Of a DNA stretch of 39,096 nucleotides, positions 1 through 22,045 are shown in pieces (positions within the stretch are counted from its first letter, which is position 1; each line of letters starts with the position of its first letter). The stretch lies in sequence record AY264777.1; one strand, written 5' to 3'. This DNA comes from Escherichia phage T7. Below the pieces are notes generated by a model. That model did no database searches, was not told the DNA's origin, and worked only from the letters and a program-made list of their open reading frames with translations. The position numbers and the translations under genes were made by a program.

Positions 1-137
1 TTCCCCCATAAGGGGTACCTAAAGCCCAGCCAATCACCTAAAGTCAACCTTCGGTTGATCTTGAGGGTTCCCTAAGGGTTGGGGATGACCCTTGGGTTTG
101 TCTTTGGGTGTTACCTTGAGTGTCTCTCTGTGTTCCT
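1..137. repeat. Left direct terminal repeat, partial (window starts about 23 bp inside the 160-bp repeat)
   Basis: 1..120 is identical to 38960..39079 at the other end; the last 17 bp differ from the right copy at 2 positions. Confidence 0.9.
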
Positions 138-149
138 ATCTGTTACAGT

Positions 150-330
150 CTTCTAAAGTATCCTCTTAAAGTCACCTCCTAACGTCCATCCTAAAGCCAA
201 CACCTAAAGCCTACACCTAAAGACCCATCAAGTCAACGCCTATCTTAAAGTTTAAACATAAAGACCAGACCTAAAGACCAGACCTAAAGACACTACATAA
301 AGACCAGACCTAAAGACGCCTTGTTGTTAG
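150..330. repeat. Left-end array of short CCTAAAG-like repeats (T7 end-proximal short repeats)
   Basis: Irregularly spaced cctaaag/cttaaag/cataaag heptamers, e.g. accagacctaaagaccagacctaaagac; non-coding. Confidence 0.6.
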
Positions 331-364
331 CCATAAAGTGATAATCTTTAATCATTGTCTTTAT

Positions 365-387
365 TAATACAACTCACTATAAGGAGA
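365..387 (+). promoter_or_regulatory. T7 RNAP promoter phiOL
   Basis: taatacaactcactataaggaga, 21/23 match to the T7 consensus. Confidence 0.8.
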
Positions 388-438
388 GACAACTTAAAGA
401 GACTTAAAAGATTAATTTAAAATTTATCAAAAAGAGTA

Positions 439-476
439 TTGACTTAAAGTCTAATCTATAGGATACTTACAGCCAT
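439..476 (+). promoter_or_regulatory. E. coli sigma70 early promoter A1
   Basis: -35 ttgact (439-444), 17-bp spacer, -10 gatact (462-467), start near 475; matches the recalled T7 A1 context. Confidence 0.8.
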
Positions 477-565
477 CGAGAGGGACACGGTGAATAGCCA
501 TCCCAATCGACACCGGGGTCAACCGGATAAGTAGACAGCCTGATAAGTCGCACGAAAAACAGGTA

Positions 566-604
566 TTGACAACATGAAGTAACATGCAGTAAAATACAAA
601 TCGC
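566..604 (+). promoter_or_regulatory. E. coli sigma70 early promoter A2
   Basis: -35 ttgaca (566-571), -10 taaaat (590-595), start near 603. Confidence 0.8.
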
Positions 605-690
605 TAGATAACACTAGCAGCGTCAACCGGGCGCACAGTGCCTTCTAGGTGACTTAAGCGCACCACGGCACATAAGGTGAAACAAAACGG

Positions 691-728
691 TTGACAACAT
701 GAAGTAAACACGGTACGATGTACCACAT
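691..728 (+). promoter_or_regulatory. E. coli sigma70 early promoter A3
   Basis: -35 ttgaca (691-696), -10 tacgat (714-719), start near 727. Confidence 0.8.
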
Positions 729-813
729 GAAACGACAGTGAGTCACCACACTGAAAGGTGATGCGATCTAACGAAACCTGACCTAAGACGCTCTTTAACA
801 ATCTGGTAAATAG

Positions 814-870
814 CTCTTGAGTGCATGACTAGCGAATAACTCAAGGGTATCGCAAGGTGCCCTTTATGAT
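814..870 (+). promoter_or_regulatory. Probable RNase III processing stem-loop R0.3
   Basis: Imperfect inverted repeat ctcttgagt...actcaaggg followed by ccctttatgat upstream of gene 0.3. Confidence 0.45.
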
Positions 871-901
871 ATTCACTACTAACTGCACGAGGTAACACAA
901 G

Positions 902-1255
902 ATGGTTATGTCTAACATGACTTACAACAACGTTTTCGACCACGCTTACGAAATGCTGAAAGAAAACATCCGTTATGATGACATCCGTGACACTGATGAC
1001 CTGCACGATGCTATTCACATGGCTGCCGATAATGCAGTTCCGCACTACTACGCTGACATCTTTAGCGTAATGGCAAGTGAGGGCATTGACCTTGAGTTCG
1101 AAGACTCTGGTCTGATGCCTGACACCAAGGACGTAATCCGCATCCTGCAAGCACGTATCTATGAGCAATTAACGATTGACCTCTGGGAAGACGCAGAAGA
1201 CTTGCTCAATGAATACTTGGAGGAAGTCGAGAAGTACGAGGAGAATGAAGAGTAA
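902..1255 (+). CDS. ocr: Gene 0.3 Ocr, DNA-mimic anti-restriction protein (117 aa)
   Basis: ORF track 902..1255; acidic protein matching recalled T7 Ocr apart from 3 substitutions. Confidence 0.92.
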
Positions 1256-1338
1256 TGTCTACTACCAACGTGCAATACGGTCTGACCGCTCAAACTGTAC
1301 TTTTCTATAGCGACATGGTGCGCTGTGGCTTTAACTGA
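1255..1338 (+). pseudogene. 0.4: Gene 0.4 (FtsZ inhibitor) truncated by premature TGA after 27 codons
   Basis: ATG at 1255 overlapping the ocr stop; tga at 1336-1338; reading through would give 51 codons ending at tga 1408-1410, the wild-type length. Confidence 0.7.
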
Positions 1339-1412
1339 TCACTCGCAATGGCACAGCTCAAAGAACTGTACGAAAACAACAAGGCAATAGCTTTAGAATC
1401 TGCTGAGTGATA

Positions 1413-1450
1413 GACTCAAGGTCGCTCCTAGCGAGTGGCCTTTATGATTA
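1413..1450 (+). promoter_or_regulatory. RNase III processing site R0.5
   Basis: Motif ctcaaggtcgctcctagcgagtggcctttatgatt, which recurs in intergenic regions. Confidence 0.55.
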
Positions 1451-1472
1451 TCACTTTACTTATGAGGGAGTA

Positions 1473-1616
1473 ATGTATATGCTTACTATCGGTCTACTCA
1501 CCGCTCTAGGTCTAGCTGTAGGTGCATCTTTTGGGAAGGCTTTAGGTGTAGCTGTAGGTTCTTACTTTACCGCTTGCATCATCATAGGAATCATCAAAGG
1601 GGCACTACGCAAATGA
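1473..1616 (+). CDS. 0.5: Gene 0.5, small hydrophobic protein (47 aa)
   Basis: ATG at 1473 inside ORF-track frame 1407..1616; product MYMLTIGLLTALGLAVG... Confidence 0.7.
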   Translation: MYMLTIGLLTALGLAVGASFGKALGVAVGSYFTACIIIGIIKGALRK

Positions 1617-1774
1617 TGAAGCACTACGTTATGCCAATCCACACGTCCAACGGGGCAACCGTATGTACACCTGATGGGTTCGCAATGAAACAACGAATCG
1701 AACGCCTTAAGCGTGAACTCCGCATTAACCGCAAGATTAACAAGATAGATTCCGGCTATGACAGAACGCACTGA
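1613..1774 (+). CDS. 0.6: Gene 0.6A (53 aa); 0.6B would be a frameshift extension into the 1758..1976 frame
   Basis: Internal ATG at 1613 of ORF 1574..1774; product MMKHYVMPIHTSNGATV... Confidence 0.65.
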   Translation: MMKHYVMPIHTSNGATVCTPDGFAMKQRIERLKRELRINRKINKIDSGYDRTH

Positions 1775-1998
1775 TGGCTTAAAGAAAGGTTATATGCCCA
1801 ATGGCACACTATACGCTGCAAATTGGCGAATAGTGAGAACTTGGCGAGAGAACAACCTCGAACGCCGCAAGGAACAAGAGAGGGCGGCGTGGCATAGACG
1901 AAAGGAAAAGGTTAAAGCCAAGAAACTCGCCGCACTTGAACAGGCACTAGTCAACACACTGAACGCTATCTCATAACGAACATAAAGGACACAATGCA

Positions 1999-2259
1999 AT
2001 GAACATTACCGACATCATGAACGCTATCGACGCAATCAAAGCACTGCCAATCTGTGAACTTGACAAGCGTCAAGGTATGCTTATCGACTTACTGATCGAG
2101 ATGGTCAACAGCGAGACGTGTGATGGCGAGCTAACCGAACTAAATCAGGCGCTTGAGGAACGAATCGCGCTGCACTGGCGTAATGCTGACCGGATGGCTA
2201 TCGCTAATGGTCTTACGCTCAACATTGATAAGCAACTTGACGCAATGTTAATGGGCTGA
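1999..2259 (+). CDS. 0.7: Gene 0.7 remnant, 86 aa, in-frame internal deletion of the protein kinase/host-shutoff protein (wild type 359 aa)
   Basis: ORF 1999..2259 joins the recalled gp0.7 N-terminus ([14 protein letters not shown]...ELNQALE) to its C-terminus ([33 protein letters not shown]). Confidence 0.85.
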
Positions 2260-2264
2260 TAGTC

Positions 2265-2305
2265 TTATCTTACAGGTCATCTGCGAGTGGCCTGAATAGG
2301 TACGA
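2265..2305 (+). promoter_or_regulatory. Probable RNase III processing site R1
   Basis: acaggtcatctgcgagtggcctgaatagg upstream of gene 1, related to the recurring motif. Confidence 0.45.
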
Positions 2306-2329
2306 TTTACTAACTGGAAGAGGCACTAA

Positions 2330-4981
2330 ATGAACACGATTAACATCGCTAAGAACGACTTCTCTGACATCGAACTGGCTGCTATCCCGTTCAACACTCT
2401 GGCTGACCATTACGGTGAGCGTTTAGCTCGCGAACAGTTGGCTCTTGAGCATGAGTCTTACGAGATGGGTGAAGCACGCTTTCGCAAGATGTTTGAGCGT
2501 CAACTTAAAGCTGGTGAGGTTGCGGATAACGCTGCCGCCAAGCCTCTCATCACTACCCTACTCCCTAAGATGATTGCACGCATCAACGACTGGTTTGAGG
2601 AAGTGAAAGCTAAGCGCGGCAAGCGCCCGACAGCTTTCCAGTTCCTGCAAGAAATCAAGCCGGAAGCCGTAGCGTACATCACCATTAAGACCACTCTGGC
2701 TTGCCTAACCAGTGCTGACAATACAACCGTTCAGGCTGCAGCAAGCGCAATCGGTCGGGCCATTGAGGACGAGGCTCGTTTCGGTCGTATCCGTGACCTT
2801 GAAGCTAAGCACTTCAAGAAAAACGTTGAGGAACAACTCAACAAGCGCGTAGGGCACGTCTACAAGAAAGCATTTATGCAAGTTGTCGAGGCTGACATGC
2901 TCTCTAAGGGTCTACTCGGTGGCGAGGCGTGGTCTTCGTGGCATAAGGAAGACTCTATTCATGTAGGAGTACGCTGCATCGAGATGCTCATTGAGTCAAC
3001 CGGAATGGTTAGCTTACATCGCCAAAATGCTGGCGTAGTAGGTCAAGACTCTGAGACTATCGAACTCGCACCTGAATACGCTGAGGCTATCGCAACCCGT
3101 GCAGGTGCGCTGGCTGGCATCTCTCCGATGTTCCAACCTTGCGTAGTTCTTCCTAAGCCGTGGACTGGCATTACTGGTGGTGGCTATTGGGCTAACGGTC
3201 GTCGTCCTCTGGCGCTGGTGCGTACTCACAGTAAGAAAGCACTGATGCGCTACGAAGACGTTTACATGCCTGAGGTGTACAAAGCGATTAACATTGCGCA
3301 AAACACCGCATGGAAAATCAACAAGAAAGTCCTAGCGGTCGCCAACGTAATCACCAAGTGGAAGCATTGTCCGGTCGAGAACATCCCTGCGATTGAGCGT
3401 GAAGAACTCCCGATGAAACCGGAAAACATCGACATGAATCCTGAGGCTCTCATCGCGTGGAAACGTGCTGCCGCTGCTGTGTACCGCAAGGACAAGGCTC
3501 GCAAGTCTCGCCGTATCAGCCTTGAGTTCATGCTTGAGCAAGCCAATAAGTTTGCTAATCATAAGGCCATTTGGTTCCCTTACAACATGGACTGGCGCGG
3601 TCGTGTTTACGCTGTGTCAATGTTCAACCCGCAAGGTAACGATATGACCAAAGGACTGCTTACGCTGGCAAAAGGTAAACCAATCGGTAAGGAAGGTTAC
3701 TACTGGCTGAAAATCCACGGTGCAAACTGTGCGGGTGTCGATAAGGTTCCGTTCCCTGAGCGCATCAAGTTCATTGAGGAAAACCACGAGAACATCATAG
3801 CTTGCGCTAAGTCTCCACTGGAGAACACTTGGTGGGCTGAGCAAGATTCTCCGTTCTGCTTCCTTGCGTTCTGCTTTGAGTACGCTGGGGTACAGCACCA
3901 CGGCCTGAGCTATAACTGCTCCCTTCCGCTGGCGTTTGACGGGTCTTGCTCTGGCATCCAGCACTCCTCCGCGATGCTCCGAGATGAGGTAGGTGGTCGC
4001 GCGGTTAACTTGCTTCCTAGTGAAACCGTTCACGACATCTACGGGATTGTTGCTAAGAAAGTCAACGAGATTCTACAAGCAGATGCAATCAATGGGACCG
4101 ATAACGAAGTAGTTACCGTGACCGATGAGAACACTGGTGAAATCTCTGAGAAAGTCAAGCTGGGCACTAAGGCACTGGCTGGTCAATGGCTGGCTTACAG
4201 TGTTACTCGCAGTGTGACTAAGCGTTCAGTCATGACGCTGGCTTACGGGTCCAAAGAGTTCGGCTTCCGTCAACAAGTGCTGGAAGATACCATTCAGCCA
4301 GCTATTGATTCCGGCAAGGGTCTGATGTTCACTCAGCCGAATCAGGCTGCTGGATACATGGCTAAGCTGATTTGGGAATCTGTGAGCGTGACGGTGGTAG
4401 CTGCGGTTGAAGCAATGAACTGGCTTAAGTCTGCTGCTAAGCTGCTGGCTGCTGAGGTCAAAGATAAGAAGACTGGAGAGATTCTTCGCAAGCGTTGCGC
4501 TGTGCATTGGGTAACTCCTGATGGTTTTCCTGTGTGGCAGGAATACAAGAAGCCTATTCAGACGCGCTTGAACCTGATGTTCCTCGGTCAGTTCCGCTTA
4601 CAGCCTACCATTAACACCAACAAAGATAGCGAGATTGATGCACACAAACAGGAGTCTGGTATCGCTCCTAACTTTGTACACAGCCAAGACGGTAGCCATC
4701 TTCGTAAGACTGTAGTGTGGGCACACGAGAAGTACGGAATCGAATCTTTTGCACTGATTCACGACTCCTTCGGTACCATTCCGGCTGACGCTGCGAACTT
4801 GTTCAAAGCAGTGCGCGAAACTATGGTTGACACATATGAGTCTTGTGATGTACTGGCTGATTTCTACGACCAGTTCGCTGACCAGTTGCACGAGTCTCAA
4901 TTGGACAAAATGCCAGCACTTCCGGCTAAAGGTAACTTGAACCTCCGTGACATCTTAGAGTCGGACTTCGCGTTCGCGTAA
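2330..4981 (+). CDS. 1: Gene 1, T7 RNA polymerase (883 aa)
   Basis: ORF 2330..4981; full-length single-subunit RNAP; specificity-loop region as recalled for wild type. Confidence 0.98.
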   Translation: MNTINIAKNDFSDIELAAIPFNTLADHYGERLAREQLALEHESYEMGEARFRKMFERQLKAGEVADNAAAKPLITTLLPKMIARINDWFEEVKAKRGKRPTAFQFLQEIKPEAVAYITIKTTLACLTSADNTTVQAAASAIGRAIEDEARFGRIRDLEAKHFKKNVEEQLNKRVGHVYKKAFMQVVEADMLSKGLLGGEAWSSWHKEDSIHVGVRCIEMLIESTGMVSLHRQNAGVVGQDSETIELAPEYAEAIATRAGALAGISPMFQPCVVLPKPWTGITGGGYWANGRRPLALVRTHSKKALMRYEDVYMPEVYKAINIAQNTAWKINKKVLAVANVITKWKHCPVENIPAIEREELPMKPENIDMNPEALIAWKRAAAAVYRKDKARKSRRISLEFMLEQANKFANHKAIWFPYNMDWRGRVYAVSMFNPQGNDMTKGLLTLAKGKPIGKEGYYWLKIHGANCAGVDKVPFPERIKFIEENHENIIACAKSPLENTWWAEQDSPFCFLAFCFEYAGVQHHGLSYNCSLPLAFDGSCSGIQHSSAMLRDEVGGRAVNLLPSETVHDIYGIVAKKVNEILQADAINGTDNEVVTVTDENTGEISEKVKLGTKALAGQWLAYSVTRSVTKRSVMTLAYGSKEFGFRQQVLEDTIQPAIDSGKGLMFTQPNQAAGYMAKLIWESVSVTVVAAVEAMNWLKSAAKLLAAEVKDKKTGEILRKRCAVHWVTPDGFPVWQEYKKPIQTRLNLMFLGQFRLQPTINTNKDSEIDAHKQESGIAPNFVHSQDGSHLRKTVVWAHEKYGIESFALIHDSFGTIPADAANLFKAVRETMVDTYESCDVLADFYDQFADQLHESQLDKMPALPAKGNLNLRDILESDFAFA

Positions 4982-4989
4982 CGCCAAAT

Positions 4990-5012
4990 CAATACGACTC
5001 ACTATAGAGGGA
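4990..5012 (+). promoter_or_regulatory. T7 promoter phi1.1A (part of the primary replication origin)
   Basis: caatacgactcactatagaggga. Confidence 0.85.
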
Positions 5013-5014
5013 CA

Positions 5015-5052
5015 AACTCAAGGTCATTCGCAAGAGTGGCCTTTATGATTGA
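5015..5052 (+). promoter_or_regulatory. RNase III processing site R1.1
   Basis: ctcaaggtcattcgcaagagtggcctttatgatt. Confidence 0.55.
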
Positions 5053-5064
5053 CCTTCTTCCGGT

Positions 5065-5087
5065 TAATACGACTCACTATAGGAGAA
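5065..5087 (+). promoter_or_regulatory. T7 promoter phi1.1B
   Basis: taatacgactcactataggagaa. Confidence 0.85.
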
Positions 5088-5165
5088 CCTTAAGGTTTAA
5101 CTTTAAAACCCTTAAGTGTTAATTAGAGATTTAAATTAAAGAATTACTAAGAGAGGACTTTAAGT

Positions 5166-5294
5166 ATGCGTAACTTCGAAAAGATGACCAAACGTTCTAA
5201 CCGTAATGCTCGTGACTTCGAGGCAACCAAAGGTCACAAGTTGAATAAGACTAAGCGTGACCGCTCTCACAAGCGTAGCTGGGAGGGTCAGTAA
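5166..5294 (+). CDS. 1.1: Gene 1.1 (42 aa, basic)
   Basis: ATG 5166 to taa 5292-5294; MRNFEKMTKRSNRNARDFEATKGHKLNKTKRDRSHKRSWEGQ. Confidence 0.7.
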   Translation: MRNFEKMTKRSNRNARDFEATKGHKLNKTKRDRSHKRSWEGQ

Positions 5295-5295
5295 G

Positions 5296-5553
5296 ATGGG
5301 ACGTTTATATAGTGGTAATCTGGCAGCATTCAAGGCAGCAACAAACAAGCTGTTCCAGTTAGACTTAGCGGTCATTTATGATGATTGGTATGATGCTTAT
5401 ACAAGAAAAGATTGCATACGGTTACGTATTGAGGACAGGAGTGGAAACTTGATTGATACTAGCACCTTCTACCACCACGACGAGGACGTTCTGTTCAATA
5501 TGTGTACTGATTGGTTGAACCATATGTATGACCAGTTGAAGGACTGGAAGTAA
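5296..5553 (+). CDS. 1.2: Gene 1.2, inhibitor of host dGTPase (85 aa)
   Basis: Internal ATG 5296 of ORF 5257..5553; MGRLYSGNLAAFKAATNKLF... Confidence 0.8.
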   Translation: MGRLYSGNLAAFKAATNKLFQLDLAVIYDDWYDAYTRKDCIRLRIEDRSGNLIDTSTFYHHDEDVLFNMCTDWLNHMYDQLKDWK

Positions 5554-5573
5554 TACGACTCAGTATAGGGACA
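5551..5573 (+). promoter_or_regulatory. T7 promoter phi1.3
   Basis: taatacgactcagtatagggaca. Confidence 0.85.
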
Positions 5574-5575
5574 AT

Positions 5576-5615
5576 GCTTAAGGTCGCTCTCTAGGAGTGG
5601 CCTTAGTCATTTAAC
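5576..5615 (+). promoter_or_regulatory. RNase III processing site R1.3
   Basis: cttaaggtcgctctctaggagtggccttagtcattt. Confidence 0.5.
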
Positions 5616-5633
5616 CAATAGGAGATAAACATT

Positions 5634-6713
5634 ATGATGAACATTAAGACTAACCCGTTTAAAGCCGTGTCTTTCGTAGAGTCTGCCATTAAGAAGGCTC
5701 TGGATAACGCTGGGTATCTTATCGCTGAAATCAAGTACGATGGTGTACGCGGGAACATCTGCGTAGACAATACTGCTAACAATTACTGGCTCTCTCGTGT
5801 ATCTAAAACGATTCCGGCACTGGAGCACTTAAACGGGTTTGATGTTCGCTGGAAGCGTCTACTGAACGATGACCGTTGCTTCTACAAAGATGGCTTTATG
5901 CTTGATGGGGAACTCATGGTCAAAGGCGTAGACTTTAACACAGGGTCCGGCCTACTGCGTACCAAATGGACTGACACGAAGAACCAAGAATTCCATGAAG
6001 AGTTATTCGTTGAACCAATCCGTAAGAAAGATAAAGTTCCCTTTAAGCTGCACACTGGACACCTTCACATAAAACTGTACGCTATCCTCCCGCTGCACAT
6101 CGTGGAGTCTGGAGAAGACTGTGATGTCATGACGTTGCTCATGCAGGAACACGTTAAGAACATGCTGCCTCTGCTACAGGAATACTTCCCTGAAATCGAA
6201 TGGCAAGCGGCTGAATCTTACGAGGTCTACGATATGGTAGAACTACAGCAACTGTACGAGCAGAAGCGAGCAGAAGGCCATGAGGGTCTCATTGTGAAAG
6301 ACCCGATGTGTATCTATAAGCGCGGTAAGAAATCTGGCTGGTGGAAAATGAAACCTGAGAACGAAGCTGACGGTATCATTCAGGGTCTGGTATGGGGTAC
6401 AAAAGGTCTGGCTAATGAAGGTAAAGTGATTGGTTTTGAGGTGCTTCTTGAGAGTGGTCGTTTAGTTAACGCCACGAATATCTCTCGCGCCTTAATGGAT
6501 GAGTTCACTGAGACAGTAAAAGAGGCCACCCTAAGTCAATGGGGATTCTTTAGCCCATACGGTATTGGCGACAACGATGCTTGTACTATTAACCCTTACG
6601 ATGGCTGGGCGTGTCAAATTAGCTACATGGAGGAAACACCTGATGGCTCTTTGCGGCACCCATCGTTCGTAATGTTCCGTGGCACCGAGGACAACCCTCA
6701 AGAGAAAATGTAA
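5634..6713 (+). CDS. 1.3: Gene 1.3, ATP-dependent DNA ligase (359 aa)
   Basis: ORF 5634..6713; ligase motif region EIKYDGVRG with the adenylation lysine. Confidence 0.95.
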   Translation: MMNIKTNPFKAVSFVESAIKKALDNAGYLIAEIKYDGVRGNICVDNTANNYWLSRVSKTIPALEHLNGFDVRWKRLLNDDRCFYKDGFMLDGELMVKGVDFNTGSGLLRTKWTDTKNQEFHEELFVEPIRKKDKVPFKLHTGHLHIKLYAILPLHIVESGEDCDVMTLLMQEHVKNMLPLLQEYFPEIEWQAAESYEVYDMVELQQLYEQKRAEGHEGLIVKDPMCIYKRGKKSGWWKMKPENEADGIIQGLVWGTKGLANEGKVIGFEVLLESGRLVNATNISRALMDEFTETVKEATLSQWGFFSPYGIGDNDACTINPYDGWACQISYMEETPDGSLRHPSFVMFRGTEDNPQEKM

Positions 6714-6718
6714 TCACA

Positions 6719-6752
6719 CTGGCTCACCTTCGGGTGGGCCTTTCTGCGTTTA
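6719..6752 (+). terminator. Early terminator TE (intrinsic, for E. coli RNAP)
   Basis: GC-rich hairpin ggctcaccttcgggtgggcc followed by tttctgcgttt just after the gene 1.3 stop. Confidence 0.8.
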
Positions 6753-6766
6753 TAAGGAGACACTTT

Positions 6767-6922
6767 ATGTTTAAGAAGGTTGGTAAATTCCTTGCGGCTT
6801 TGGCAGCTATCCTGACGCTTGCGTATATTCTTGCGGTATATCCTCAAGTAGCACTAGTAGTAGTTGGCGCTTGTTACTTAGCGGCAGTGTGTGCTTGCGT
6901 GTGGAGTATAATTAACTGGTAA
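6767..6922 (+). CDS. 1.4: Gene 1.4 (51 aa, hydrophobic)
   Basis: Internal ATG 6767 of ORF 6734..6922. Confidence 0.6.
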   Translation: MFKKVGKFLAALAAILTLAYILAVYPQVALVVVGACYLAAVCACVWSIINW

Positions 6923-6942
6923 TACGACTCACTAAAGGAGGT
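6920..6942 (+). promoter_or_regulatory. T7 promoter phi1.5
   Basis: taatacgactcactaaaggaggt. Confidence 0.85.
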
Positions 6943-6949
6943 ACACACC

Positions 6950-7039
6950 ATGATGTACTTAATGTTATTACTCATCGTCATTGTAGGATGCCTTGCGCTC
7001 TACTGTAGCGATGATGATATGCCAGATGGTCACGCTTAA
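6950..7039 (+). CDS. 1.5: Gene 1.5 (29 aa)
   Basis: ATG 6950 to taa 7037-7039 between phi1.5 and phi1.6. Confidence 0.55.
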   Translation: MMYLMLLLIVIVGCLALYCSDDDMPDGHA

Positions 7040-7059
7040 TACGACTCACTAAAGGAGAC
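7037..7059 (+). promoter_or_regulatory. T7 promoter phi1.6
   Basis: taatacgactcactaaaggagac. Confidence 0.85.
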
Positions 7060-7064
7060 ACTAT

Positions 7065-7325
7065 ATGTTTCGACTTCATTACAACAAAAGCGTTAAGAAT
7101 TTCACGGTTCGCCGTGCTGACCGTTCAATCGTATGTGCGAGCGAGTGCCGAGCTAAGATACCTCTTATTGGTAACACAGTTCCTTTGGCACCGAGCGTCC
7201 ACATCATTATCACCCGTGGTGACTTTGAGAAAGCAATAGACAAGAAACGTCCGGTTCTTAGTGTGGCAGTGACCCGCTTCCCGTTCGTCCGTCTGTTACT
7301 CAAACGAATCAAAGAGGTGTTCTGA
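7065..7325 (+). CDS. 1.6: Gene 1.6 (86 aa)
   Basis: ORF track 7065..7325. Confidence 0.75.
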
Positions 7326-7907
7326 TGGGACTGTTAGATGGTGAAGCCTGGGAAAAAGAAAACCCGCCAGTACAAGCAACTGGGTGTATAGCTTGCTTAG
7401 AGAAAGATGACCGTTATCCACATACCTGTAACAAAGGAGCTAACGATATGACCGAACGTGAACAAGAGATGATCATTAAGTTGATAGACAATAATGAAGA
7501 TCGCCCAGATGATTTGAATGGCTGCGGTATTCTCTGCTCCAATGTCCCTTGCCACCTCTGCCCCGCAAATAACGATCAAAAGATAACCTTAGGTGAAATC
7601 CGAACGATGGACCCACGTAAACCACATCTGAATAAACCTGAGGTAATTCCTACAGATGATCAGTCTTCCGCTGAGACAATCGAAGGTGTCACTAAGCCTT
7701 CCCACTACATGCTGTTTGACGACATTGAGGCTATCGAAGTGATTGCTCGTTCAATGACCGTTGAGCAATTCAAGGGATACTGCTTCGGTAACATTTTAAA
7801 GTACAGACTACGTGCTGGTAAGAAGTCAGAGTTAGCGTACTTAGAGAAAGACCTAGCGAAAGCAGACTTCTATAAAGAACTCTTTGAGAAACATAAGGAT
7901 AAATGTT

Positions 7908-7915
<8 letters not shown>
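7325..7915 (+). CDS. 1.7: Gene 1.7, nucleotide kinase (196 aa)
   Basis: ORF track 7325..7915; length matches T7 gp1.7. Confidence 0.85.
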
Positions 7916-8248
<333 letters not shown>

Positions 8249-8251
<3 letters not shown>

Positions 8252-8271
8252 TACGACTCACTATTAGAGAA
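8249..8271 (+). promoter_or_regulatory. T7 promoter phi2.5 (A-initiating class II promoter)
   Basis: taatacgactcactattagagaa. Confidence 0.8.
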
Positions 8272-8316
8272 GACTCCCTCTGAGAAACCAAACGAAACCT
8301 AAAGGAGATTAACATT

Positions 8317-9015
8317 ATGGCTAAGAAGATTTTCACCTCTGCGCTGGGTACCGCTGAACCTTACGCTTACATCGCCAAGCCGGACTACGGCAACGAAGAG
8401 CGTGGCTTTGGGAACCCTCGTGGTGTCTATAAAGTTGACCTGACTATTCCCAACAAAGACCCGCGCTGCCAGCGTATGGTCGATGAAATCGTGAAGTGTC
8501 ACGAAGAGGCTTATGCTGCTGCCGTTGAGGAATACGAAGCTAATCCACCTGCTGTAGCTCGTGGTAAGAAACCGCTGAAACCGTATGAGGGTGACATGCC
8601 GTTCTTCGATAACGGTGACGGTACGACTACCTTTAAGTTCAAATGCTACGCGTCTTTCCAAGACAAAAAAACCAAAGAGACCAAGCACATCAATCTGGTT
8701 GTGGTTGACTCAAAAGGTAAGAAGATGAAAGACGTTCCGATTATCGGTGGTGGCTCTAAGCTGAAAGTTAAATATTCTCTGATTCCATACAAGTGGAACA
8801 CTGCTGTAGGTGCGAGCGTTAAGCTGCAACTGGAATCCGTGATGCTGGTCGAACTGGCTACCTTTGGTGGCGGTGAAGACGATTGGGCTGACGAAGTTGA
8901 AGAGAACGGCTATGTTGCCTCTGGTTCTGCCAAAGCGAGCAAACCACGCGACGAAGAAAGCTGGGACGAAGACGACGAAGAGTCCGAGGAAGCAGACGAA
9001 AACGGAGACTTCTAA
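8317..9015 (+). CDS. 2.5: Gene 2.5, single-stranded DNA-binding protein (232 aa)
   Basis: ORF 8317..9015; acidic C-terminal tail ...DEESEEADENGDF. Confidence 0.95.
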   Translation: MAKKIFTSALGTAEPYAYIAKPDYGNEERGFGNPRGVYKVDLTIPNKDPRCQRMVDEIVKCHEEAYAAAVEEYEANPPAVARGKKPLKPYEGDMPFFDNGDGTTTFKFKCYASFQDKKTKETKHINLVVVDSKGKKMKDVPIIGGGSKLKVKYSLIPYKWNTAVGASVKLQLESVMLVELATFGGGEDDWADEVEENGYVASGSAKASKPRDEESWDEDDEESEEADENGDF

Positions 9016-9435
9016 GTGGAACTGCGGGAGAAAATCCTTGAGCGAATCAAGGTGACTTCCTCTGGGTGTTGGGAGTGGCAGGGCGCTACGAACAATAAAG
9101 GGTACGGGCAGGTGTGGTGCAGCAATACCGGAAAGGTTGTCTACTGTCATCGCGTAATGTCTAATGCTCCGAAAGATTCTACCGTCCTGCACTCCTGTGA
9201 TAATCCATTATGTTGTAACCCTGAACACTTATCCATAGGAACTCCAAAAGAGAACTCCACTGACATGGTAAATAAGGGTCGCTCACACAAGGGGTATAAA
9301 CTTTCAGACGAAGACGTAATGACAATCATGGAGTTCAGCGAGTCCAATGTATCCTTAGCTCGCACCTATGATGTCTCCCAACAGACTATTTGTGATATAC
9401 GCAAAGGGAGGCGACATGGCAGGTTACAGCGCTAA
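9016..9435 (+). CDS. 2.8: Gene 2.8, HNH-like protein (139 aa), apparent GTG start
   Basis: ORF 9016..9435; Cys/His-rich N-terminal half. Confidence 0.75.
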   Translation: MELREKILERIKVTSSGCWEWQGATNNKGYGQVWCSNTGKVVYCHRVMSNAPKDSTVLHSCDNPLCCNPEHLSIGTPKENSTDMVNKGRSHKGYKLSDEDVMTIMEFSESNVSLARTYDVSQQTICDIRKGRRHGRLQR

Positions 9436-9865
9436 AGGAATCCGAAAAGTTGGAGCGTTTCGCTCTGGCCTAGAGGACAAGGTTTCAAAGCAGTTGGAAT
9501 CAAAAGGTATTAAATTCGAGTATGAAGAGTGGAAAGTGCCTTATGTAATTCCGGCGAGCAATCACACTTACACTCCAGACTTCTTACTCCCAAACGGTAT
9601 ATTCGTTGAGACAAAGGGTCTGTGGGAAAGCGATGATAGAAAGAAGCACTTATTAATTAGGAAGCAGCACCCCGAGCTAGACATCCGTATTGTCTTCTCA
9701 AGCTCACGTACTAAGTTATACAAAGGTTCTCCAACGTCTTATGGAGAGTTCTGCGAAAAGCATGGTATTAAGTTCGCTGATAAACTGATACCTGCTGAGT
9801 GGATAAAGGAACCCAAGAAGGAGGTCCCCTTTGATAGATTAAAAAGGAAAGGAGGAAAGAAATAA
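9416..9865 (+). CDS. 3: Gene 3, endonuclease I, Holliday-junction resolvase (149 aa)
   Basis: Internal ATG 9416 of ORF 9368..9865; MAGYSAKGIRKVGAFRSGLEDKVSKQLE... Confidence 0.9.
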   Translation: MAGYSAKGIRKVGAFRSGLEDKVSKQLESKGIKFEYEEWKVPYVIPASNHTYTPDFLLPNGIFVETKGLWESDDRKKHLLIRKQHPELDIRIVFSSSRTKLYKGSPTSYGEFCEKHGIKFADKLIPAEWIKEPKKEVPFDRLKRKGGKK

Positions 9866-10320
9866 TGGCTCGTGTACAGTTTAAACAACGTGAATTTACT
9901 GATGCAATCTTTGTTCACTGCTCGGCTACCAAGCCAAGTCAGAATGTTGGTGTCCGTGAGATTCGCCAGTGGCACAAAGAGCAGGGTTGGCTCGATGTGG
10001 GATACCACTTTATCATCAAGCGAGACGGTACTGTGGAGGCAGGACGAGATGAGATGGCTGTAGGCTCTCACGCTAAGGGTTACAACCACAACTCTATCGG
10101 CGTCTGCCTTGTTGGTGGTATCGACGATAAAGGTAAGTTCGACGCTAACTTTACGCCAGCCCAAATGCAATCCCTTCGCTCACTGCTTGTCACACTGCTG
10201 GCTAAGTACGAAAGCGCTGTGCTTCGCGCCCATCATGAGGTGGCGCCGAAGGCTTGCCCTTCGTTCGACCTTAAGCGTTGGTGGGAGAAGAACGAACTGG
10301 TCACTTCTGACCGTGGATAA
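9865..10320 (+). CDS. 3.5: Gene 3.5, lysozyme (N-acetylmuramoyl-L-alanine amidase, RNAP inhibitor) (151 aa)
   Basis: ORF 9865..10320; MARVQFKQREFTDAIFVHCSATK... Confidence 0.95.
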   Translation: MARVQFKQREFTDAIFVHCSATKPSQNVGVREIRQWHKEQGWLDVGYHFIIKRDGTVEAGRDEMAVGSHAKGYNHNSIGVCLVGGIDDKGKFDANFTPAQMQSLRSLLVTLLAKYESAVLRAHHEVAPKACPSFDLKRWWEKNELVTSDRG

Positions 10321-10321
10321 T

Positions 10322-10344
10322 TAATTGAACTCACTAAAAGGAAA
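10322..10344 (+). promoter_or_regulatory. T7 promoter phi3.8 (variant initially transcribed sequence)
   Basis: taattgaactcactaaaaggaaa. Confidence 0.75.
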
Positions 10345-10383
10345 CCACAGCGGTTTCCCTTTGTTCGCATTGGAGGTCAAATA

Positions 10384-12424
<2,041 letters not shown>

Positions 12425-12482
12425 CAGGATTCTTGATGACTTTCCAGACGACTACGAAAAGTTTCGCTGGAGAGTCCCATTC

Positions 12483-12505
12483 TAATACGACTCACTAAAG
12501 GAGAC
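12483..12505 (+). promoter_or_regulatory. T7 promoter phi4.3
   Basis: taatacgactcactaaaggagac. Confidence 0.85.
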
Positions 12506-12510
12506 ACACC

Positions 12511-12723
12511 ATGTTCAAACTGATTAAGAAGTTAGGCCAACTGCTGGTTCGTATGTACAACGTGGAAGCCAAGCGATTGAACGATGAGGCTCGTAAAGAG
12601 GCCACACAGTCACGCGCTCTGGCGATTCGCTCCAACGAACTGGCTGACAGTGCATCCACTAAAGTTACCGAAGCTGCCCGTGTGGCAAACCAAGCTCAAC
12701 AGCTTTCCAAATTCTTTGAGTAA
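12511..12723 (+). CDS. 4.3: Gene 4.3 (70 aa)
   Basis: ORF track 12511..12723. Confidence 0.7.
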   Translation: MFKLIKKLGQLLVRMYNVEAKRLNDEARKEATQSRALAIRSNELADSASTKVTEAARVANQAQQLSKFFE

Positions 12724-12742
12724 TCAAACAGGAGAAACCATT

Positions 12743-13012
12743 ATGTCTAACGTAGTTGAAACTATCCGTCTATCCGATACAGCTGACCAGTGGAACCGTC
12801 GAGTCCACATCAACGTTCGCAACGGTAAGGCGACTATGGTTTACCGTTGGAAGGACTCTAAGTCCTCTAAGAATCACACTCAGCGTATGACGTTGACAGA
12901 TGAGCAAGCACTGCGTCTGGTCAATGCGCTTACCAAAGCTGCCGTGACAGCAATTCATGAAGCTGGTCGCATCAATGAAGCTATGGCTATCCTCGACAAG
13001 ATTGATAACTAA
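12743..13012 (+). CDS. 4.5: Gene 4.5 (89 aa)
   Basis: Internal ATG 12743 of ORF 12584..13012, preceded by aggagaaacc. Confidence 0.7.
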   Translation: MSNVVETIRLSDTADQWNRRVHINVRNGKATMVYRWKDSKSSKNHTQRMTLTDEQALRLVNALTKAAVTAIHEAGRINEAMAILDKIDN

Positions 13013-13020
13013 GAGTGGTA

Positions 13021-13058
13021 TCCTCAAGGTCGCCAAAGTGGTGGCCTTCATGAATACT
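13021..13058 (+). promoter_or_regulatory. RNase III processing site R4.7
   Basis: tcctcaaggtcgccaaagtggtggccttcatgaatact. Confidence 0.5.
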
Positions 13059-13079
13059 ATTCGACTCACTATAGGAGAT
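13057..13079 (+). promoter_or_regulatory. T7 promoter phi4.7
   Basis: ctattcgactcactataggagat. Confidence 0.8.
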
Positions 13080-13085
13080 ATTACC

Positions 13086-13493
13086 ATGCGTGACCCTAAA
13101 GTTATCCAAGCAGAAATCGCTAAACTGGAAGCTGAACTGAAGGACGTTAAGTACCATGAAACTAAGACTCGCTCCGCTGTTCACATCTTGAAGAACTTAG
13201 ACTGGACTTGGACAAGACAGACTGGCTGGAAGAAACCAGAAGTTACCAAGCTGAGTCATAAGGTGTTCGATAAGGACACTATGACCCACATCAAGGCTGG
13301 TGATTGGGTTAAGGTTGACATGGGAGTTGTTGGTGGATACGGCTACGTCCGCTCAGTTAGTGGCAAATATGCACAAGTGTCATACATCACAGGTGTTACT
13401 CCACGCGGTGCAATCGTTGCCGATAAAACCAACATGATTCACACAGGTTTCTTGACAGTTGTTTCATATAAAGAGATTGTTAAGTCACGATAA
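13086..13493 (+). CDS. 4.7: Gene 4.7 (135 aa)
   Basis: Internal ATG 13086 of ORF 12957..13493. Confidence 0.75.
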   Translation: MRDPKVIQAEIAKLEAELKDVKYHETKTRSAVHILKNLDWTWTRQTGWKKPEVTKLSHKVFDKDTMTHIKAGDWVKVDMGVVGGYGYVRSVSGKYAQVSYITGVTPRGAIVADKTNMIHTGFLTVVSYKEIVKSR

Positions 13494-13511
13494 TCAATAG
13501 GAGAAATCAAT

Positions 13512-15626
13512 ATGATCGTTTCTGACATCGAAGCTAACGCCCTCTTAGAGAGCGTCACTAAGTTCCACTGCGGGGTTATCTACGACTACTCCACCGCTGA
13601 GTACGTAAGCTACCGTCCGAGTGACTTTGGTGCGTATCTGGATGCGCTGGAAGCCGAGGTTGCACGAGGCGGTCTTATTGTGTTCCACAACGGTCACAAG
13701 TATGACGTTCCTGCATTGATCAAACTGGCAAAGTTGCAATTGAACCGAGAGTTCCACCTTCCTCGTGAGAACTGTATTGACACCCTTGTGTTGTCACGTT
13801 TGATTCATTCCAACCTCAAGAACATCGATATGGGTCTTCTGCGTTCCGGCAAGTTGCCCGGAAAACGCTTTGGGTCTCACGCTTTGGAGGCGTGGGGTTA
13901 TCGCTTAGGCGAGATGAAGGGTGAATACAAAGACGACTTTAAGCGTATGCTTGAAGAGCAGGGTGAAGAATACGTTGACGGAATGGAGTGGTGGAACTTC
14001 AACGAAGAGATGATGGACTATAACGTTCAGGACGTTGTGGTAACTAAAGCTCTCCTTGAGAAGCTACTCTCTGACAAACATTATTTCCCTCCTGAGATTG
14101 ACTTTACGGACGTAGGATACACTACGTTCTGGTCAGAATCCCTTGAGGCCGTTGACATTGAACATCGTGCTGCATGGCTGCTCGCTAAACAAGAGCGCAA
14201 CGGGTTCCCGTTTGACACAAAAGCAATCGAAGAGTTGTACGTAGAGTTAGCTTCTCGCCGCTCTGAATTGCTCCGTAAATTGACCGAAACGTTCGGCTCG
14301 TGGTATCAGCCTAAAGGTGGCACTGAGATGTTCTGCCATCCGCGAACAGGTAAGCCACTACCTAAATACCCTCGCATTAAGACACCTAAAGTTGGTGGTA
14401 TCTTTAAGAAGCCTAAGAACAAGGCACAGCGAGAAGGCCGTGAGCCTTGCGAACTTGATACCCGCGAGTACGTTGCTGGTGCTCCTTACACCCCAGTTGA
14501 ACATGTTGTGTTTAACCCTTCGTCTCGTGACCACATTCAGAAGAAACTCCAAGAGACTGGGTGGATCCCGACCAAGTACACCGATAAGGGTGCTCCTGTG
14601 GTGGACGATGAGGTACTCGAAGGAGTACGTGTAGATGACCCTGAGAAGCAAGCCGCTATCGACCTCATTAAAGAGTACTTGATGATTCAGAAGCGAATCG
14701 GACAGTCTGCTGAGGGAGACAAAGCATGGCTTCGTTATGTTGCTGAGGATGGTAAGATTCATGGTTCTGTTAACCCTAATGGAGCAGTTACGGGTCGTGC
14801 GACCCATGCGTTCCCAAACCTTGCGCAAATTCCGGGTGTACGTTCTCCTTATGGAGAGCAGTGTCGTGCTGCTTTTGGCGCTGAGCACCATTTGGATGGG
14901 ATAACTGGTAAGCCTTGGGTTCAGGCTGGCATCGACGCATCCGGTCTTGAGCTACGCTGCTTGGCTCACTTCATGGCTCGCTTTGATAACGGCGAGTACG
15001 CTCACGAGATTCTTAACGGCGACATCCACACTAAGAACCAGATAGCTGCTGAACTACCTACCCGAGATAACGCTAAGACGTTCATCTATGGGTTTCTCTA
15101 TGGTGCTGGTGATGAGAAGATTGGACAGATTGTTGGTGCTGGTAAAGAGCGCGGTAAGGAACTCAAGAAGAAATTCCTTGAGAACACCCCCGCGATTGCA
15201 GCACTCCGCGAGTCTATCCAACAGACACTTGTCGAGTCCTCTCAATGGGTAGCTGGTGAGCAACAAGTCAAGTGGAAACGCCGCTGGATTAAAGGTCTGG
15301 ATGGTCGTAAGGTACACGTTCGTAGTCCTCACGCTGCCTTGAATACCCTACTGCAATCTGCTGGTGCTCTCATCTGCAAACTGTGGATTATCAAGACCGA
15401 AGAGATGCTCGTAGAGAAAGGCTTGAAGCATGGCTGGGATGGGGACTTTGCGTACATGGCATGGGTACATGATGAAATCCAAGTAGGCTGCCGTACCGAA
15501 GAGATTGCTCAGGTAGTCATTGAGATCGCACAAGAAGCGATGCGCTGGGTTGGAGACCACTGGAACTTCCGGTGTCTTCTGGATACCGAAGGTAAGATGG
15601 GTCCTAATTGGGCGATTTGTCACTGA
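13512..15626 (+). CDS. 5: Gene 5, DNA polymerase (704 aa)
   Basis: ORF 13512..15626; family A polymerase with N-terminal 3'-5' exonuclease ([13 protein letters not shown]). Confidence 0.97.
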
Positions 15627-15641
15627 TACAGGAGGTTACTC

Positions 15642-15998
15642 ATGAACGAAAGACACTTAACAGATGCTGCTTCTGAAATGCTAGTAGCCTACAAATTTAC
15701 CAAAGCTGGGTACATTGTCTATTACCCTATGCTGACTCAGAGTAAAGAGGACTTGGTTGTATGTAAAAATGGTAAATTTAGTAAGGTTCAGGTTAAAACA
15801 GCCACAACGGTTCAAACCAACACAGGAGATGCCAAGCAGGTTAGGCTAGGTGGATGCGGTAGGTCCGAATATAAGGATGGAGACTTTGACATTCTTGCGG
15901 TTGTGGTTGACGAAGATGTGCTTATTTTCACATGGGACGAAGTAAAAGGTAAGACATCCATGTGTGTCGGCAAGAGAAACAAAGACATAAAATTATAG
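15642..15998 (+). CDS. 5.3: Gene 5.3, homing-endonuclease-like (118 aa)
   Basis: ORF track 15642..15998. Confidence 0.75.
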   Translation: MNERHLTDAASEMLVAYKFTKAGYIVYYPMLTQSKEDLVVCKNGKFSKVQVKTATTVQTNTGDAKQVRLGGCGRSEYKDGDFDILAVVVDEDVLIFTWDEVKGKTSMCVGKRNKDIKL

Positions 15999-16009
15999 GA
16001 GAAATTATT

Positions 16010-16309
16010 ATGGCTATGACAAAGAAATTTAAAGTGTCCTTCGACGTTACCGCAAAAATGTCGTCTGACGTTCAGGCAATCTTAGAGAAAGATATGCTGC
16101 ATCTATGTAAGCAGGTCGGCTCAGGTGCGATTGTCCCCAATGGTAAACAGAAGGAAATGATTGTCCAGTTCCTGACACACGGTATGGAAGGATTGATGAC
16201 ATTCGTAGTACGTACATCATTTCGTGAGGCCATTAAGGACATGCACGAAGAGTATGCAGATAAGGACTCTTTCAAACAATCTTCTGCAACAGTACGGGAG
16301 GTGTTCTGA
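16010..16309 (+). CDS. 5.5: Gene 5.5, H-NS-binding protein (99 aa)
   Basis: Internal ATG 16010 of ORF 15962..16309. Confidence 0.8.
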   Translation: MAMTKKFKVSFDVTAKMSSDVQAILEKDMLHLCKQVGSGAIVPNGKQKEMIVQFLTHGMEGLMTFVVRTSFREAIKDMHEEYADKDSFKQSSATVREVF

Positions 16310-16518
16310 TGTCTGACTACCTGAAAGTGCTGCAAGCAATCAAAAGTTGCCCTAAGACTTTCCAGTCCAACTATGTACGGAACAATGCGAGCCTCGTAGC
16401 GGAGGCCGCTTCTCGTGGTCACATCTCGTGCTTGACTACTAATGGACGTAACGGTGGCGCTTGGGAAATCATTGCTTCCGGTACTCGCTTTCTGAAACGA
16501 ATGGGAGGATGTGTCTAA
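16309..16518 (+). CDS. 5.7: Gene 5.7 (69 aa)
   Basis: ORF track 16309..16518. Confidence 0.75.
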   Translation: MSDYLKVLQAIKSCPKTFQSNYVRNNASLVAEAASRGHISCLTTNGRNGGAWEIIASGTRFLKRMGGCV

Positions 16519-16676
16519 TGTCTCGTGACCTTGTGACTATTCCACGCGATGTGTGGAACGATATACAGGGCTACATCGACTCTCTGGAACGTGAGAACGA
16601 TAGCCTTAAGAATCAACTAATGGAAGCTGACGAATACGTAGCGGAACTAGAGGAGAAACTTAATGGCACTTCTTGA
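16518..16676 (+). CDS. 5.9: Gene 5.9, RecBCD inhibitor (52 aa)
   Basis: Internal ATG 16518 of ORF 16461..16676. Confidence 0.75.
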   Translation: MSRDLVTIPRDVWNDIQGYIDSLERENDSLKNQLMEADEYVAELEEKLNGTS

Positions 16677-17565
16677 CCTTAAACAATTCTATGAGTTACG
16701 TGAAGACTGCGACGACAAGGGTATCCTTGTGATGGACGGCGACTGGCTGGTCTTCCAAGCTATGAGTGCTGCTGAATTTGATGTCTCTTGGGAGGAAGAG
16801 ATTTGGCATCGATGCTGTGACCACGCTAAGGCCCGTCAGATTCTTGAGGATTCCATTAAGTCCTACGAGACCCGTAAGAAGGCTTGGGCAGGTGCTCCAA
16901 TTGTCCTTGCGTTCACCGATAGTGTTAACTGGCGTAAAGAACTGGTTGACCCGAACTATAAGACTAACCGTAAGGCCGTGAAGAAACCTGTAGGGTACTT
17001 TGAGTTCCTTGATGCTCTCTTTGAGCGTGAAGAGTTCTATTGCATCCGTGAGCCTATGCTTGAGGGTGATGACGTTATGGGAGTTATTGCTTCCAATCCG
17101 TCTGCCTTCGGTGCTCGTAAGGCTGTAATCATCTCTTGCGATAAGGACTTTAAGACCATCCCTAACTGTGACTTCCTGTGGTGTACCACTGGTAACATCC
17201 TGACTCAGACCGAAGAGTCCGCTGACTGGTGGCACCTCTTCCAGACCATCAAGGGTGACATCACTGATGGTTACTCAGGGATTGCTGGATGGGGTGATAC
17301 CGCCGAGGACTTCTTGAATAACCCGTTCATAACCGAGCCTAAAACGTTTGTGCTTAAGTCCGGTAAGAACAAAGGCCAAGAGGTTACTAAATGGGTTAAA
17401 CGCGACCCTGAGCCTCATGAGACGCTTTGGGACTGCATTAAGTCCATTGGTGCGAAGGTTGGTATGACCGAAGAGGATATTATCAAGCAGGGCCAAATGG
17501 CTCGAATCCTACGGTTCAACGAGTACAACTTTATTGACAAGGAGATTTACCTGTGGAGACCGTAG
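16663..17565 (+). CDS. 6: Gene 6, 5'-3' exonuclease (300 aa)
   Basis: ORF track 16663..17565. Confidence 0.95.
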   Translation: MALLDLKQFYELREDCDDKGILVMDGDWLVFQAMSAAEFDVSWEEEIWHRCCDHAKARQILEDSIKSYETRKKAWAGAPIVLAFTDSVNWRKELVDPNYKTNRKAVKKPVGYFEFLDALFEREEFYCIREPMLEGDDVMGVIASNPSAFGARKAVIISCDKDFKTIPNCDFLWCTTGNILTQTEESADWWHLFQTIKGDITDGYSGIAGWGDTAEDFLNNPFITEPKTFVLKSGKNKGQEVTKWVKRDPEPHETLWDCIKSIGAKVGMTEEDIIKQGQMARILRFNEYNFIDKEIYLWRP

Positions 17566-17666
17566 CGTATATTGGTCTGGGTCTTTGTGTTCTCGGAGTG
17601 TGCCTCATTTCGTGGGGCCTTTGGGACTTAGCCAGAATAATCAAGTCGTTACACGACACTAAGTGA
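17553..17666 (+). CDS. 6.3: Gene 6.3 (37 aa), apparent GTG start overlapping the gene 6 end
   Basis: gtg 17553 to tga 17664-17666; hydrophobic peptide (V/M)ETVAYIGLGLCVLGVCLISWGLW... Confidence 0.5.
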   Translation: METVAYIGLGLCVLGVCLISWGLWDLARIIKSLHDTK

Positions 17667-17667
17667 T

Positions 17668-17730
17668 AAACTCAAGGTCCCTAAATTAATACGACTCACT
17701 ATAGGGAGATAGGGGCCTTTACGATTATTA
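17668..17730 (+). promoter_or_regulatory. RNase III site R6.5 flanking promoter phi6.5
   Basis: aactcaaggtccc ... aggggcctttacgatta bracketing the promoter. Confidence 0.5.
17687..17709 (+). promoter_or_regulatory. T7 class III promoter phi6.5 (exact consensus)
   Basis: taatacgactcactatagggaga. Confidence 0.9.
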
Positions 17731-17763
17731 CTTTAAGATTTAACTCTAAGAGGAATCTTTATT

Positions 17764-18018
17764 ATGTTAACACCTATTAACCAATTACTTAAGAACCCTA
17801 ACGATATTCCAGATGTACCTCGTGCAACCGCTGAGTATCTACAGGTTCGATTCAACTATGCGTACCTCGAAGCGTCTGGTCATATAGGACTTATGCGTGC
17901 TAATGGTTGTAGTGAGGCCCACATCTTGGGTTTCATTCAGGGCCTACAGTATGCCTCTAACGTCATTGACGAGATTGAGTTACGCAAGGAACAACTAAGA
18001 GATGATGGGGAGGATTGA
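17764..18018 (+). CDS. 6.5: Gene 6.5 (84 aa)
   Basis: ORF track 17764..18018. Confidence 0.75.
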
Positions 18019-18022
18019 CACT

Positions 18023-18289
18023 ATGTGTTTCTCACCGAAAATTAAAACTCCGAAGATGGATACCAATCAGATTCGAGCCGTTGAGCCAGCGCCTCTGACC
18101 CAAGAAGTGTCAAGCGTGGAGTTCGGTGGGTCTTCTGATGAGATGGATACCGAGGGCACCGAAGTGTCTGGACGCAAAGGCCTCAAGGTCGAACGTGATG
18201 ATTCCGTAGCGAAGTCTAAAGCCAGCGGCAATGGCTCCGCTCGTATGAAATCTTCCATCCGTAAGTCTGCATTTGGAGGTAAGAAGTGA
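18023..18289 (+). CDS. 6.7: Gene 6.7, head protein (88 aa)
   Basis: Internal ATG 18023 of ORF 18002..18289. Confidence 0.8.
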   Translation: MCFSPKIKTPKMDTNQIRAVEPAPLTQEVSSVEFGGSSDEMDTEGTEVSGRKGLKVERDDSVAKSKASGNGSARMKSSIRKSAFGGKK

Positions 18290-18690: not shown

Positions 18691-18693
18691 GTT

Positions 18694-18993: not shown

Positions 18994-19006
18994 TCAGGAG
19001 GTTATC

Positions 19007-22032: not shown

Positions 22033-22045
22033 TAGACTTCGAAAT

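Follow-up and report, generated by a model that had tools for sequence, protein, structure and literature searches.

Gene 1 of Escherichia phage T7 encodes an RNA polymerase (RNAP) that is essential to the phage, and the described systems closest to the locus treated here are the wild-type enzyme, a series of T7 genomes with neighbouring accessions and a variant of the enzyme altered at residue 266. The series comprises AY264774 (T7+), AY264775 (isolate K), AY264776 (K115) and AY264778 (isolate P82), the first of which PMC2680503 credits to Bull et al. 2003. In the enzyme itself, the substitution P266L, in the hinge formed by residues 258-266, lowers the amount of short abortive products and makes the enzyme pass into elongation later, and the C-linker region that surrounds this hinge is drawn as residues 251-296, taking in P274 (PMC3961267). 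The substitution D366N has been published as part of an evolved T7 RNAP that is active, as tabulated in PMC11617373. In this work, we analyse gene 1 in sequence record AY264777.1, a stretch of 39,096 nucleotides from Escherichia phage T7 referred to below as the window, and we find that it very probably represents an alkylating-agent-mutagenised T7 of the Bull et al. 2003 series, in which gene 1 was mutated in proportion to the rest of the genome and was filtered by the requirement for viability. The two features on which the analysis is built are the following.

1..39096, plus strand: the whole window, a near-complete T7 genome with about 305 substitutions relative to T7+ and an 819-bp deletion in gene 0.7
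2330..4981, plus strand: gene 1, RNA polymerase, 883 codons and a stop codon, with 21 substitutions relative to T7+

Positions 2330 to 4981 form an uninterrupted open reading frame (ORF) of 883 amino acids, colinear with T7 gene 1 in an ungapped alignment to V01146 and AY264774. The product is a recognisable member of its family, scoring 360.9 bits against the Pfam model PF00940 (RNA_pol; cut-off 22) and 116.7 bits against PF14700 (RPOL_N; cut-off 30.1), and it has the same length as the wild-type polymerase, for which solved structures are available (PDB 1cez, 1qln and 1msw), with 874 of the 883 residues unchanged. At the nucleotide level the gene shows 99.2% identity with V01146, NC_001604, AY264774 and many dozens of other T7 entries alike, and reaches 99.9% with a single record, AY264778.1. 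Base by base, the differences from V01146 and AY264774 amount to 21 substitutions, nine of them missense and 12 synonymous, and 18 of the 21 are G:C>A:T changes. The nine missense changes, with domains assigned by the boundaries given in PMC11617373, are listed here.

2738..2740, plus strand: codon 137, GTA to GCA (T>C at 2739), V137A, N-terminal domain; also in P82
3149..3151, plus strand: codon 274, CCT to CTT (C>T at 3150), P274L, N-terminal domain; retained in P82
3380..3382, plus strand: codon 351, GAC to AAC (G>A at 3380), D351N, thumb
3425..3427, plus strand: codon 366, GAC to AAC (G>A at 3425), D366N, thumb; retained in P82
3452..3454, plus strand: codon 375, ACC to ATC (C>T at 3453), T375I, thumb; retained in P82
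3797..3799, plus strand: codon 490, ATG to ATA (G>A at 3799), M490I, four-helix bundle (residues 449-531); retained in P82
3965..3967, plus strand: codon 546, TTC to TCC (T>C at 3966), F546S, fingers; P82 has the wild-type Phe
4031..4033, plus strand: codon 568, CAG to CAC (G>C at 4033), Q568H, fingers; P82 has the wild-type Gln
4199..4201, plus strand: codon 624, GGT to AGT (G>A at 4199), G624S, fingers; retained in P82

An original prediction had proposed six of these changes, and the alignment bears out every one of them: the leucine codon CTT at 3149-3151, where the reference has CCT, the two Asp to Asn changes near residues 351 and 366, the Thr to Ile change near 375, the Met to Ile change in ENHENIIACAK and the Gly to Ser change in AYSVTRS. 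Its statement that all of them are single G:C to A:T changes holds for six out of six. The list was nevertheless incomplete, as V137A, F546S and Q568H had been overlooked, and these three are exactly the missense changes that are not of the G:C>A:T type. The same prediction had described the catalytic and specificity-loop segments as unchanged, which is correct: motif A (residues 532-545), motif B with the O-helix (625-655) and motif C (805-815) are wild-type, as are the specificity loop (739-770), the AT-rich loop (93-101), the intercalating hairpin (230-245), the hinge 258-266 (AGALAGISP) and the C-terminus. Yet F546S lies directly past motif A, at the first residue after DGSCSGIQH, and G624 stands three residues ahead of R627 of the O-helix.

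The substitutions in gene 1 are part of a load that extends over the whole genome. Relative to T7+ (AY264774), 286 of the 305 substitutions in the window (94%) are G:C>A:T, and their density is 7.9 per kb in gene 1 compared with a genome mean of 7.8 per kb, which rules out an enrichment of mutations in gene 1. The substitutions are spread evenly along the genome, and nothing in their distribution singles out the polymerase. The mutated guanines, moreover, show a strong preference for a purine on their 5′ side (4.9-fold favoured; chi-square p=5e-30), with no bias in the 3′ neighbour, and a preference for guanines preceded by a purine is the recognised context bias of alkylation of the methylnitronitrosoguanidine (MNNG) type. 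Spectrum and context thus fit a laboratory T7 that would have been taken through heavy nitrosoguanidine-type mutagenesis and population bottlenecks, and the window would most probably be isolate P of the series of Bull, Badgett, Rokyta and Molineux 2003, the parent of P82; the designations K and K115 suggest by analogy a pair P and P82. An exact-sequence look-up of its gp1 in a protein collection returned no match. On this account, gene 1 would simply have received the proportional load, namely 21 substitutions including nine missense changes. The spectrum also differs between the strands, C>T occurring at 0.0180 per C and G>A at 0.0126 per G on the plus (coding) strand (p=0.003), an asymmetry which indicates that guanines of the transcribed strand were mutated, or their mutations fixed, about 1.4 times more often.

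Selection has left a trace on this load. If every G or C of gene 1 is taken as equally mutable and nonsense changes are excluded, the expected missense fraction among G:C>A:T changes is 0.62, whereas the gene carries six missense and 12 synonymous changes of this type (p=0.015), corresponding to a value of 0.31 for a quantity analogous to the ratio of nonsynonymous to synonymous rates (dN/dS). The same depletion is visible in the essential genes of the window taken together, where the missense fraction is 0.48 against an expected 0.64 (p=1.6e-5), while nonessential genes, at 0.62 against 0.64, are at expectation, the division into essential and nonessential genes being our own approximate classification. 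Since gene 1 cannot be dispensed with and every plaque must be viable, damaging mutations in the polymerase are expected to have been filtered out. The nine missense changes that survive would accordingly constitute a filtered and tolerated subset, in an enzyme sufficient for plaque formation; the viability requirement would have removed strongly damaging mutations and left the catalytic and promoter-recognition elements intact and the enzyme functional. That it is active on T7 promoters we infer from the essentiality of gene 1 and from the deposition of the record beside isolates of a viable phage line.

These observations also bear on the trivial explanation that the deposited record was wrongly sequenced or assembled and that its differences are not real mutations. 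The record dates from the Sanger era, and an exchange of GT for TG at 10220-10221 occurs in all four evolved genomes, although the mistake could instead lie in the reference. Errors of this kind are nonetheless extremely improbable as a general account, given that 18 of the 21 changes in gene 1 recur identically in the independently deposited P82, that the spectrum and context bias match a chemical mutagen and not base-calling error, and that the missense load differs between essential and nonessential genes as biology predicts. The exchange itself falls in codon 119 of gene 3.5, where adjacent G>T and T>G changes convert GGT to GTG and produce G119V in T7 lysozyme, an inhibitor of the RNAP. 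It is common to the window, P82, K and K115 and belongs to the approximately 24 changes found in both lines; it may have arisen early, on the trunk common to both lines, or have been present already in the starting stock, or the T7+ reference may be wrong at this point. In the line of the window, gp3.5 also carries S11F and G117S.

The nine positions differ widely in their natural conservation, which was tallied in 119 close homologues (66-97% identity) and 146 diverse homologues (33-58% identity). The catalytic residues D537 and D812, as well as K631 and Y639, are unvarying across the diverse set, and the segments that carry them are wild-type in the window. Position 546 is Phe in 119/119 close homologues and Phe (104), Tyr (26), Leu (15) or Met (1) in the diverse ones, with Ser in none, so that all 265 homologues have F, Y, L or M and never a small or polar residue. 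P274 is likewise proline in 119/119 close homologues, and in 112 of the 146 diverse ones, a single member of which has leucine; P274L and F546S are the two of the nine that alter residues showing no variation among close relatives. G624 follows, with glycine in 115/119 and 120/146, respectively. Q568 (Gln in 115 and His in one of the 119 close homologues) and D351 (Asp in 114/119) are variable in the diverse set. At the remaining four sites, each new residue is found naturally in homologues: position 366 is Asp in 113/119 close homologues and Asn in 16/146 diverse ones; position 375 is mainly Lys in the former and mainly Lys or Arg in the latter, with Ile in 14/146; position 490 is Leu in 81, Met in 35 and Ile in two of the close homologues, and Leu in 67 and Ile in 24 of the diverse ones; and at position 137 alanine is the commonest residue of the close homologues (56/119) and occurs in 21/146 of the variable diverse set. 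Judged by conservation, F546S is the most radical change of the nine, and V137A is probably neutral. No paper was found in a literature search that combined T7 RNA polymerase with P274L, F546S, Q568H, G624S or M490I, and a search for a deep mutational scan of the enzyme returned nothing usable. In exact-match scans of IMG/VR, the P274L and F546S alleles were not found, and the wild-type allele was present in five contigs.

Comparison with isolate P82 separates the nine changes further. The window has 300 of its substitutions in common with AY264778.1, which also carries exactly the same 819-bp deletion in gene 0.7, and gene 1 of P82 (AAP34124.1) shares 18 of the 21 changes, including V137A, P274L, D366N, T375I, M490I and G624S. 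It differs in having tyrosine at position 351 (TAC, altered at the same nucleotide as D351N) and wild-type residues at F546 and Q568. Only five sites at which the window has a non-wild-type base differ from P82, and all five are missense; three of them lie in gene 1 (codon 351, F546S and Q568H), and the other two are T55I in gp5.7 and T13A in gp7.3. The chance of finding at least three of the five in gene 1 is about 0.003, in a test formulated post hoc.

Two of the five sites reveal the direction of change. At position 18730, the mutant base of the window is also present in the independent K and K115, whereas P82 has the wild-type base; P82 must therefore have reverted there. At codon 351, a mutagen-type change from GAC to AAC and a later one from AAC to TAC are much more probable than the opposite order. 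P82 also carries three small deletions and 20 substitutions of its own, and only 50% of its private changes are G:C>A:T compared with 95% of the shared ones (p=2e-7), a spectrum that indicates a later, unmutagenised phase. The pair formed by K and K115 shows the same pattern, with two reversions and two second hits at the same site. Taken together, the comparison suggests that F546S, Q568H and D351N, and not P274L, were the costly changes, as they appear to have been corrected or replaced during fitness recovery, in which P274L and five others persisted. The polymerase of the window would thus probably be somewhat impaired, chiefly through F546S next to motif A, with possible contributions from Q568H and D351N, and P274L, D366N, T375I, M490I, G624S and V137A would be tolerated passengers.

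Four points weigh against this assignment of costs. The direction from P to P82 is unproven at F546S and Q568H, which may be late private changes of the sequenced isolate; the two lie 67 nt apart, and both are of types other than G:C>A:T; Q568 is variable in distant homologues, so that Q568H need not have been very costly; and the abstract of the 2003 study is said to report only two reversions in the recovery, as against four apparent in P82. Much of this would be explained if F546S, Q568H and D351N had arisen late in the lineage of the window alone, after its split from the ancestor of P82, with no reversion in P82, either as compensatory or adaptive changes of the polymerase or through one clustered event of error-prone repair. 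The types and proximity of F546S (T>C) and Q568H (G>C) fit such an origin, as does the missense nature of the five discordant sites, three of which fall in gene 1, a pattern also compatible with positive selection in the lineage of the window, and an exact back-mutation from CAC to CAG requires a rare C>G transversion. We consider this origin unlikely, however: the mutant base at 18730 is demonstrably ancestral in the window; separate G>A and G>T changes at one nucleotide of codon 351 would be a large coincidence; the names of the records, with P82 beside K and K115, imply a parent and a descendant; and F546S, which introduces a small polar residue into a position otherwise confined to F, Y, L or M, is unlikely to be adaptive. 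The simplest account is that the parent already carried F546S, Q568H and D351N and that P82 later lost or exchanged them.

The three small deletions of P82 were noted in passing. Two are of 1 bp, at 9406 and 13094, and disrupt genes 2.8 and 4.7, respectively, and the third is a 12-bp in-frame deletion in gene 7.3 (18741-18752), near the reverted codon 13 of the same gene (18730). The proximity of the two events suggests that gene 7.3 was under selection in the recovery.

The K line provides an independent comparison, with 23-24 substitutions common to the window and K/K115. In gene 1, K and K115 resemble the window in their G:C>A:T load and share with it the synonymous changes A38A and H790H, but they have none of its nine missense changes. 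Their own missense set consists of T132I, V273I, P275S, D310N, E365K, S397N, D506N and V609I, to which K115 adds F825C, where close homologues likewise show no variation. Some of these adjoin the sites changed in the window, as V273I and P275S flank P274L and E365K is next to D366N, an adjacency with a permutation p of 0.02. P275 is proline in all 265 homologues examined, yet it is replaced in the K line, and V273I and P275S were both kept after recovery, in K115. To judge from these isolates, the VVPPKPW segment is more tolerant in the laboratory than natural conservation implies.

The original prediction had placed its emphasis on P274L and on promoter clearance, for which the present comparison offers no evidence: P82 keeps P274L, yet has wild-type F546 and Q568 and an altered residue 351. 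P274L does resemble P266L in that it is also a change from Pro to Leu between the N-terminal and polymerase domains, and it removes a conserved proline of the C-linker region (251-296) from the VVPPKPW segment. It differs in that the hinge 258-266 of the window is unchanged, P274 lying eight residues downstream of P266, and in that it arose from unselected mutagenesis and not in a screen.

The promoters recognised by the polymerase were inspected for matching changes. In a scan for the consensus, from which phi4.7 was not recovered, 11 of 16 consensus-like T7 promoters are unchanged in the window. The altered ones include the following.

22046..22068: phi10, a class III promoter, which serves the major capsid gene, TAATACGATTCATTATAGGGAGA, with two C>T changes within the recognition element, at -9 and -5; both retained in P82
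21007..21029: phi9, with G>A at +2, in the initiation region
8249..8271: phi2.5, with G>A at +3, in the initiation region
10322..10344: phi3.8, with G>A at +1 and +5, in the initiation region

As the specificity loop of the polymerase is unchanged, phi10 is probably weakened and not compensated. Co-evolution of the polymerase with its promoters was considered and ruled out, the specificity loop being wild-type, the promoter changes being of the mutagen type and those in phi10 persisting in P82. More broadly, the changes in the polymerase, and P274L especially, might have been selected, either for altered initiation or promoter clearance of the P266L kind or by co-adaptation to mutated promoters. 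The nature and position of P274L, the alteration of both its neighbours in the independent K line and the mutation of several promoters, including phi10 at two positions of its recognition element, would be in keeping with selection. Against it stand the density of changes in gene 1, which equals the genome mean, the depletion and not enrichment of missense changes, the mutagen-type C>T origin of P274L in a 5′-purine-G context on the opposite strand, and a hinge and specificity loop that are unchanged, with no recognisable compensation for the change at -9; mutations in the 2003 experiment were also reportedly fixed indiscriminately. Selection of this kind therefore appears very unlikely, and indiscriminate mutagenesis filtered by viability remains the preferred reading of gene 1.

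A few further features of the region were recorded. The untranslated leader carries G>A at 2286, 44 nt 5′ of the start of gene 1, which is common to P82 and lies in the area of R1, a processing site for RNase III. Two antisense ORFs within gene 1 (3617-4033 and 4598-4900, minus strand) were rejected as mechanical ORFs with no supporting evidence. Upstream, the 819-bp deletion corresponds to T7+ 2170-2988, with its junction at 2146/2147 of the window. The loss is in frame: codons ~50-322 of gene 0.7, which encodes a protein kinase, are missing, and an ORF of 86 amino acids remains at 1999-2259. The K line has a distinct deletion of 821 bp (T7+ 1759-2579), which is larger in K115.

It is tempting to go one step further and regard the polymerase, through F546S together with Q568H and D351N, as the main fitness-limiting lesion of this phage, which would have crippled transcription and whose sites were restored or replaced in P82, with the changes in VVPPKPW, a segment without variation in close relatives, tolerated in vivo and possibly acting in the manner of P266L. 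This extended proposal is doubtful and is offered as a tentative one; if it were true, the window would hold a small, naturally filtered and uncharacterised set of separation-of-function alleles of T7 RNAP. As the lineage is already known, the analysis is otherwise a read-out of a deposited experimental-evolution genome, with little significance beyond bookkeeping, and its modest value would be that of a tolerance map, recording nine missense changes compatible with phage viability in an enzyme widely used in biotechnology.

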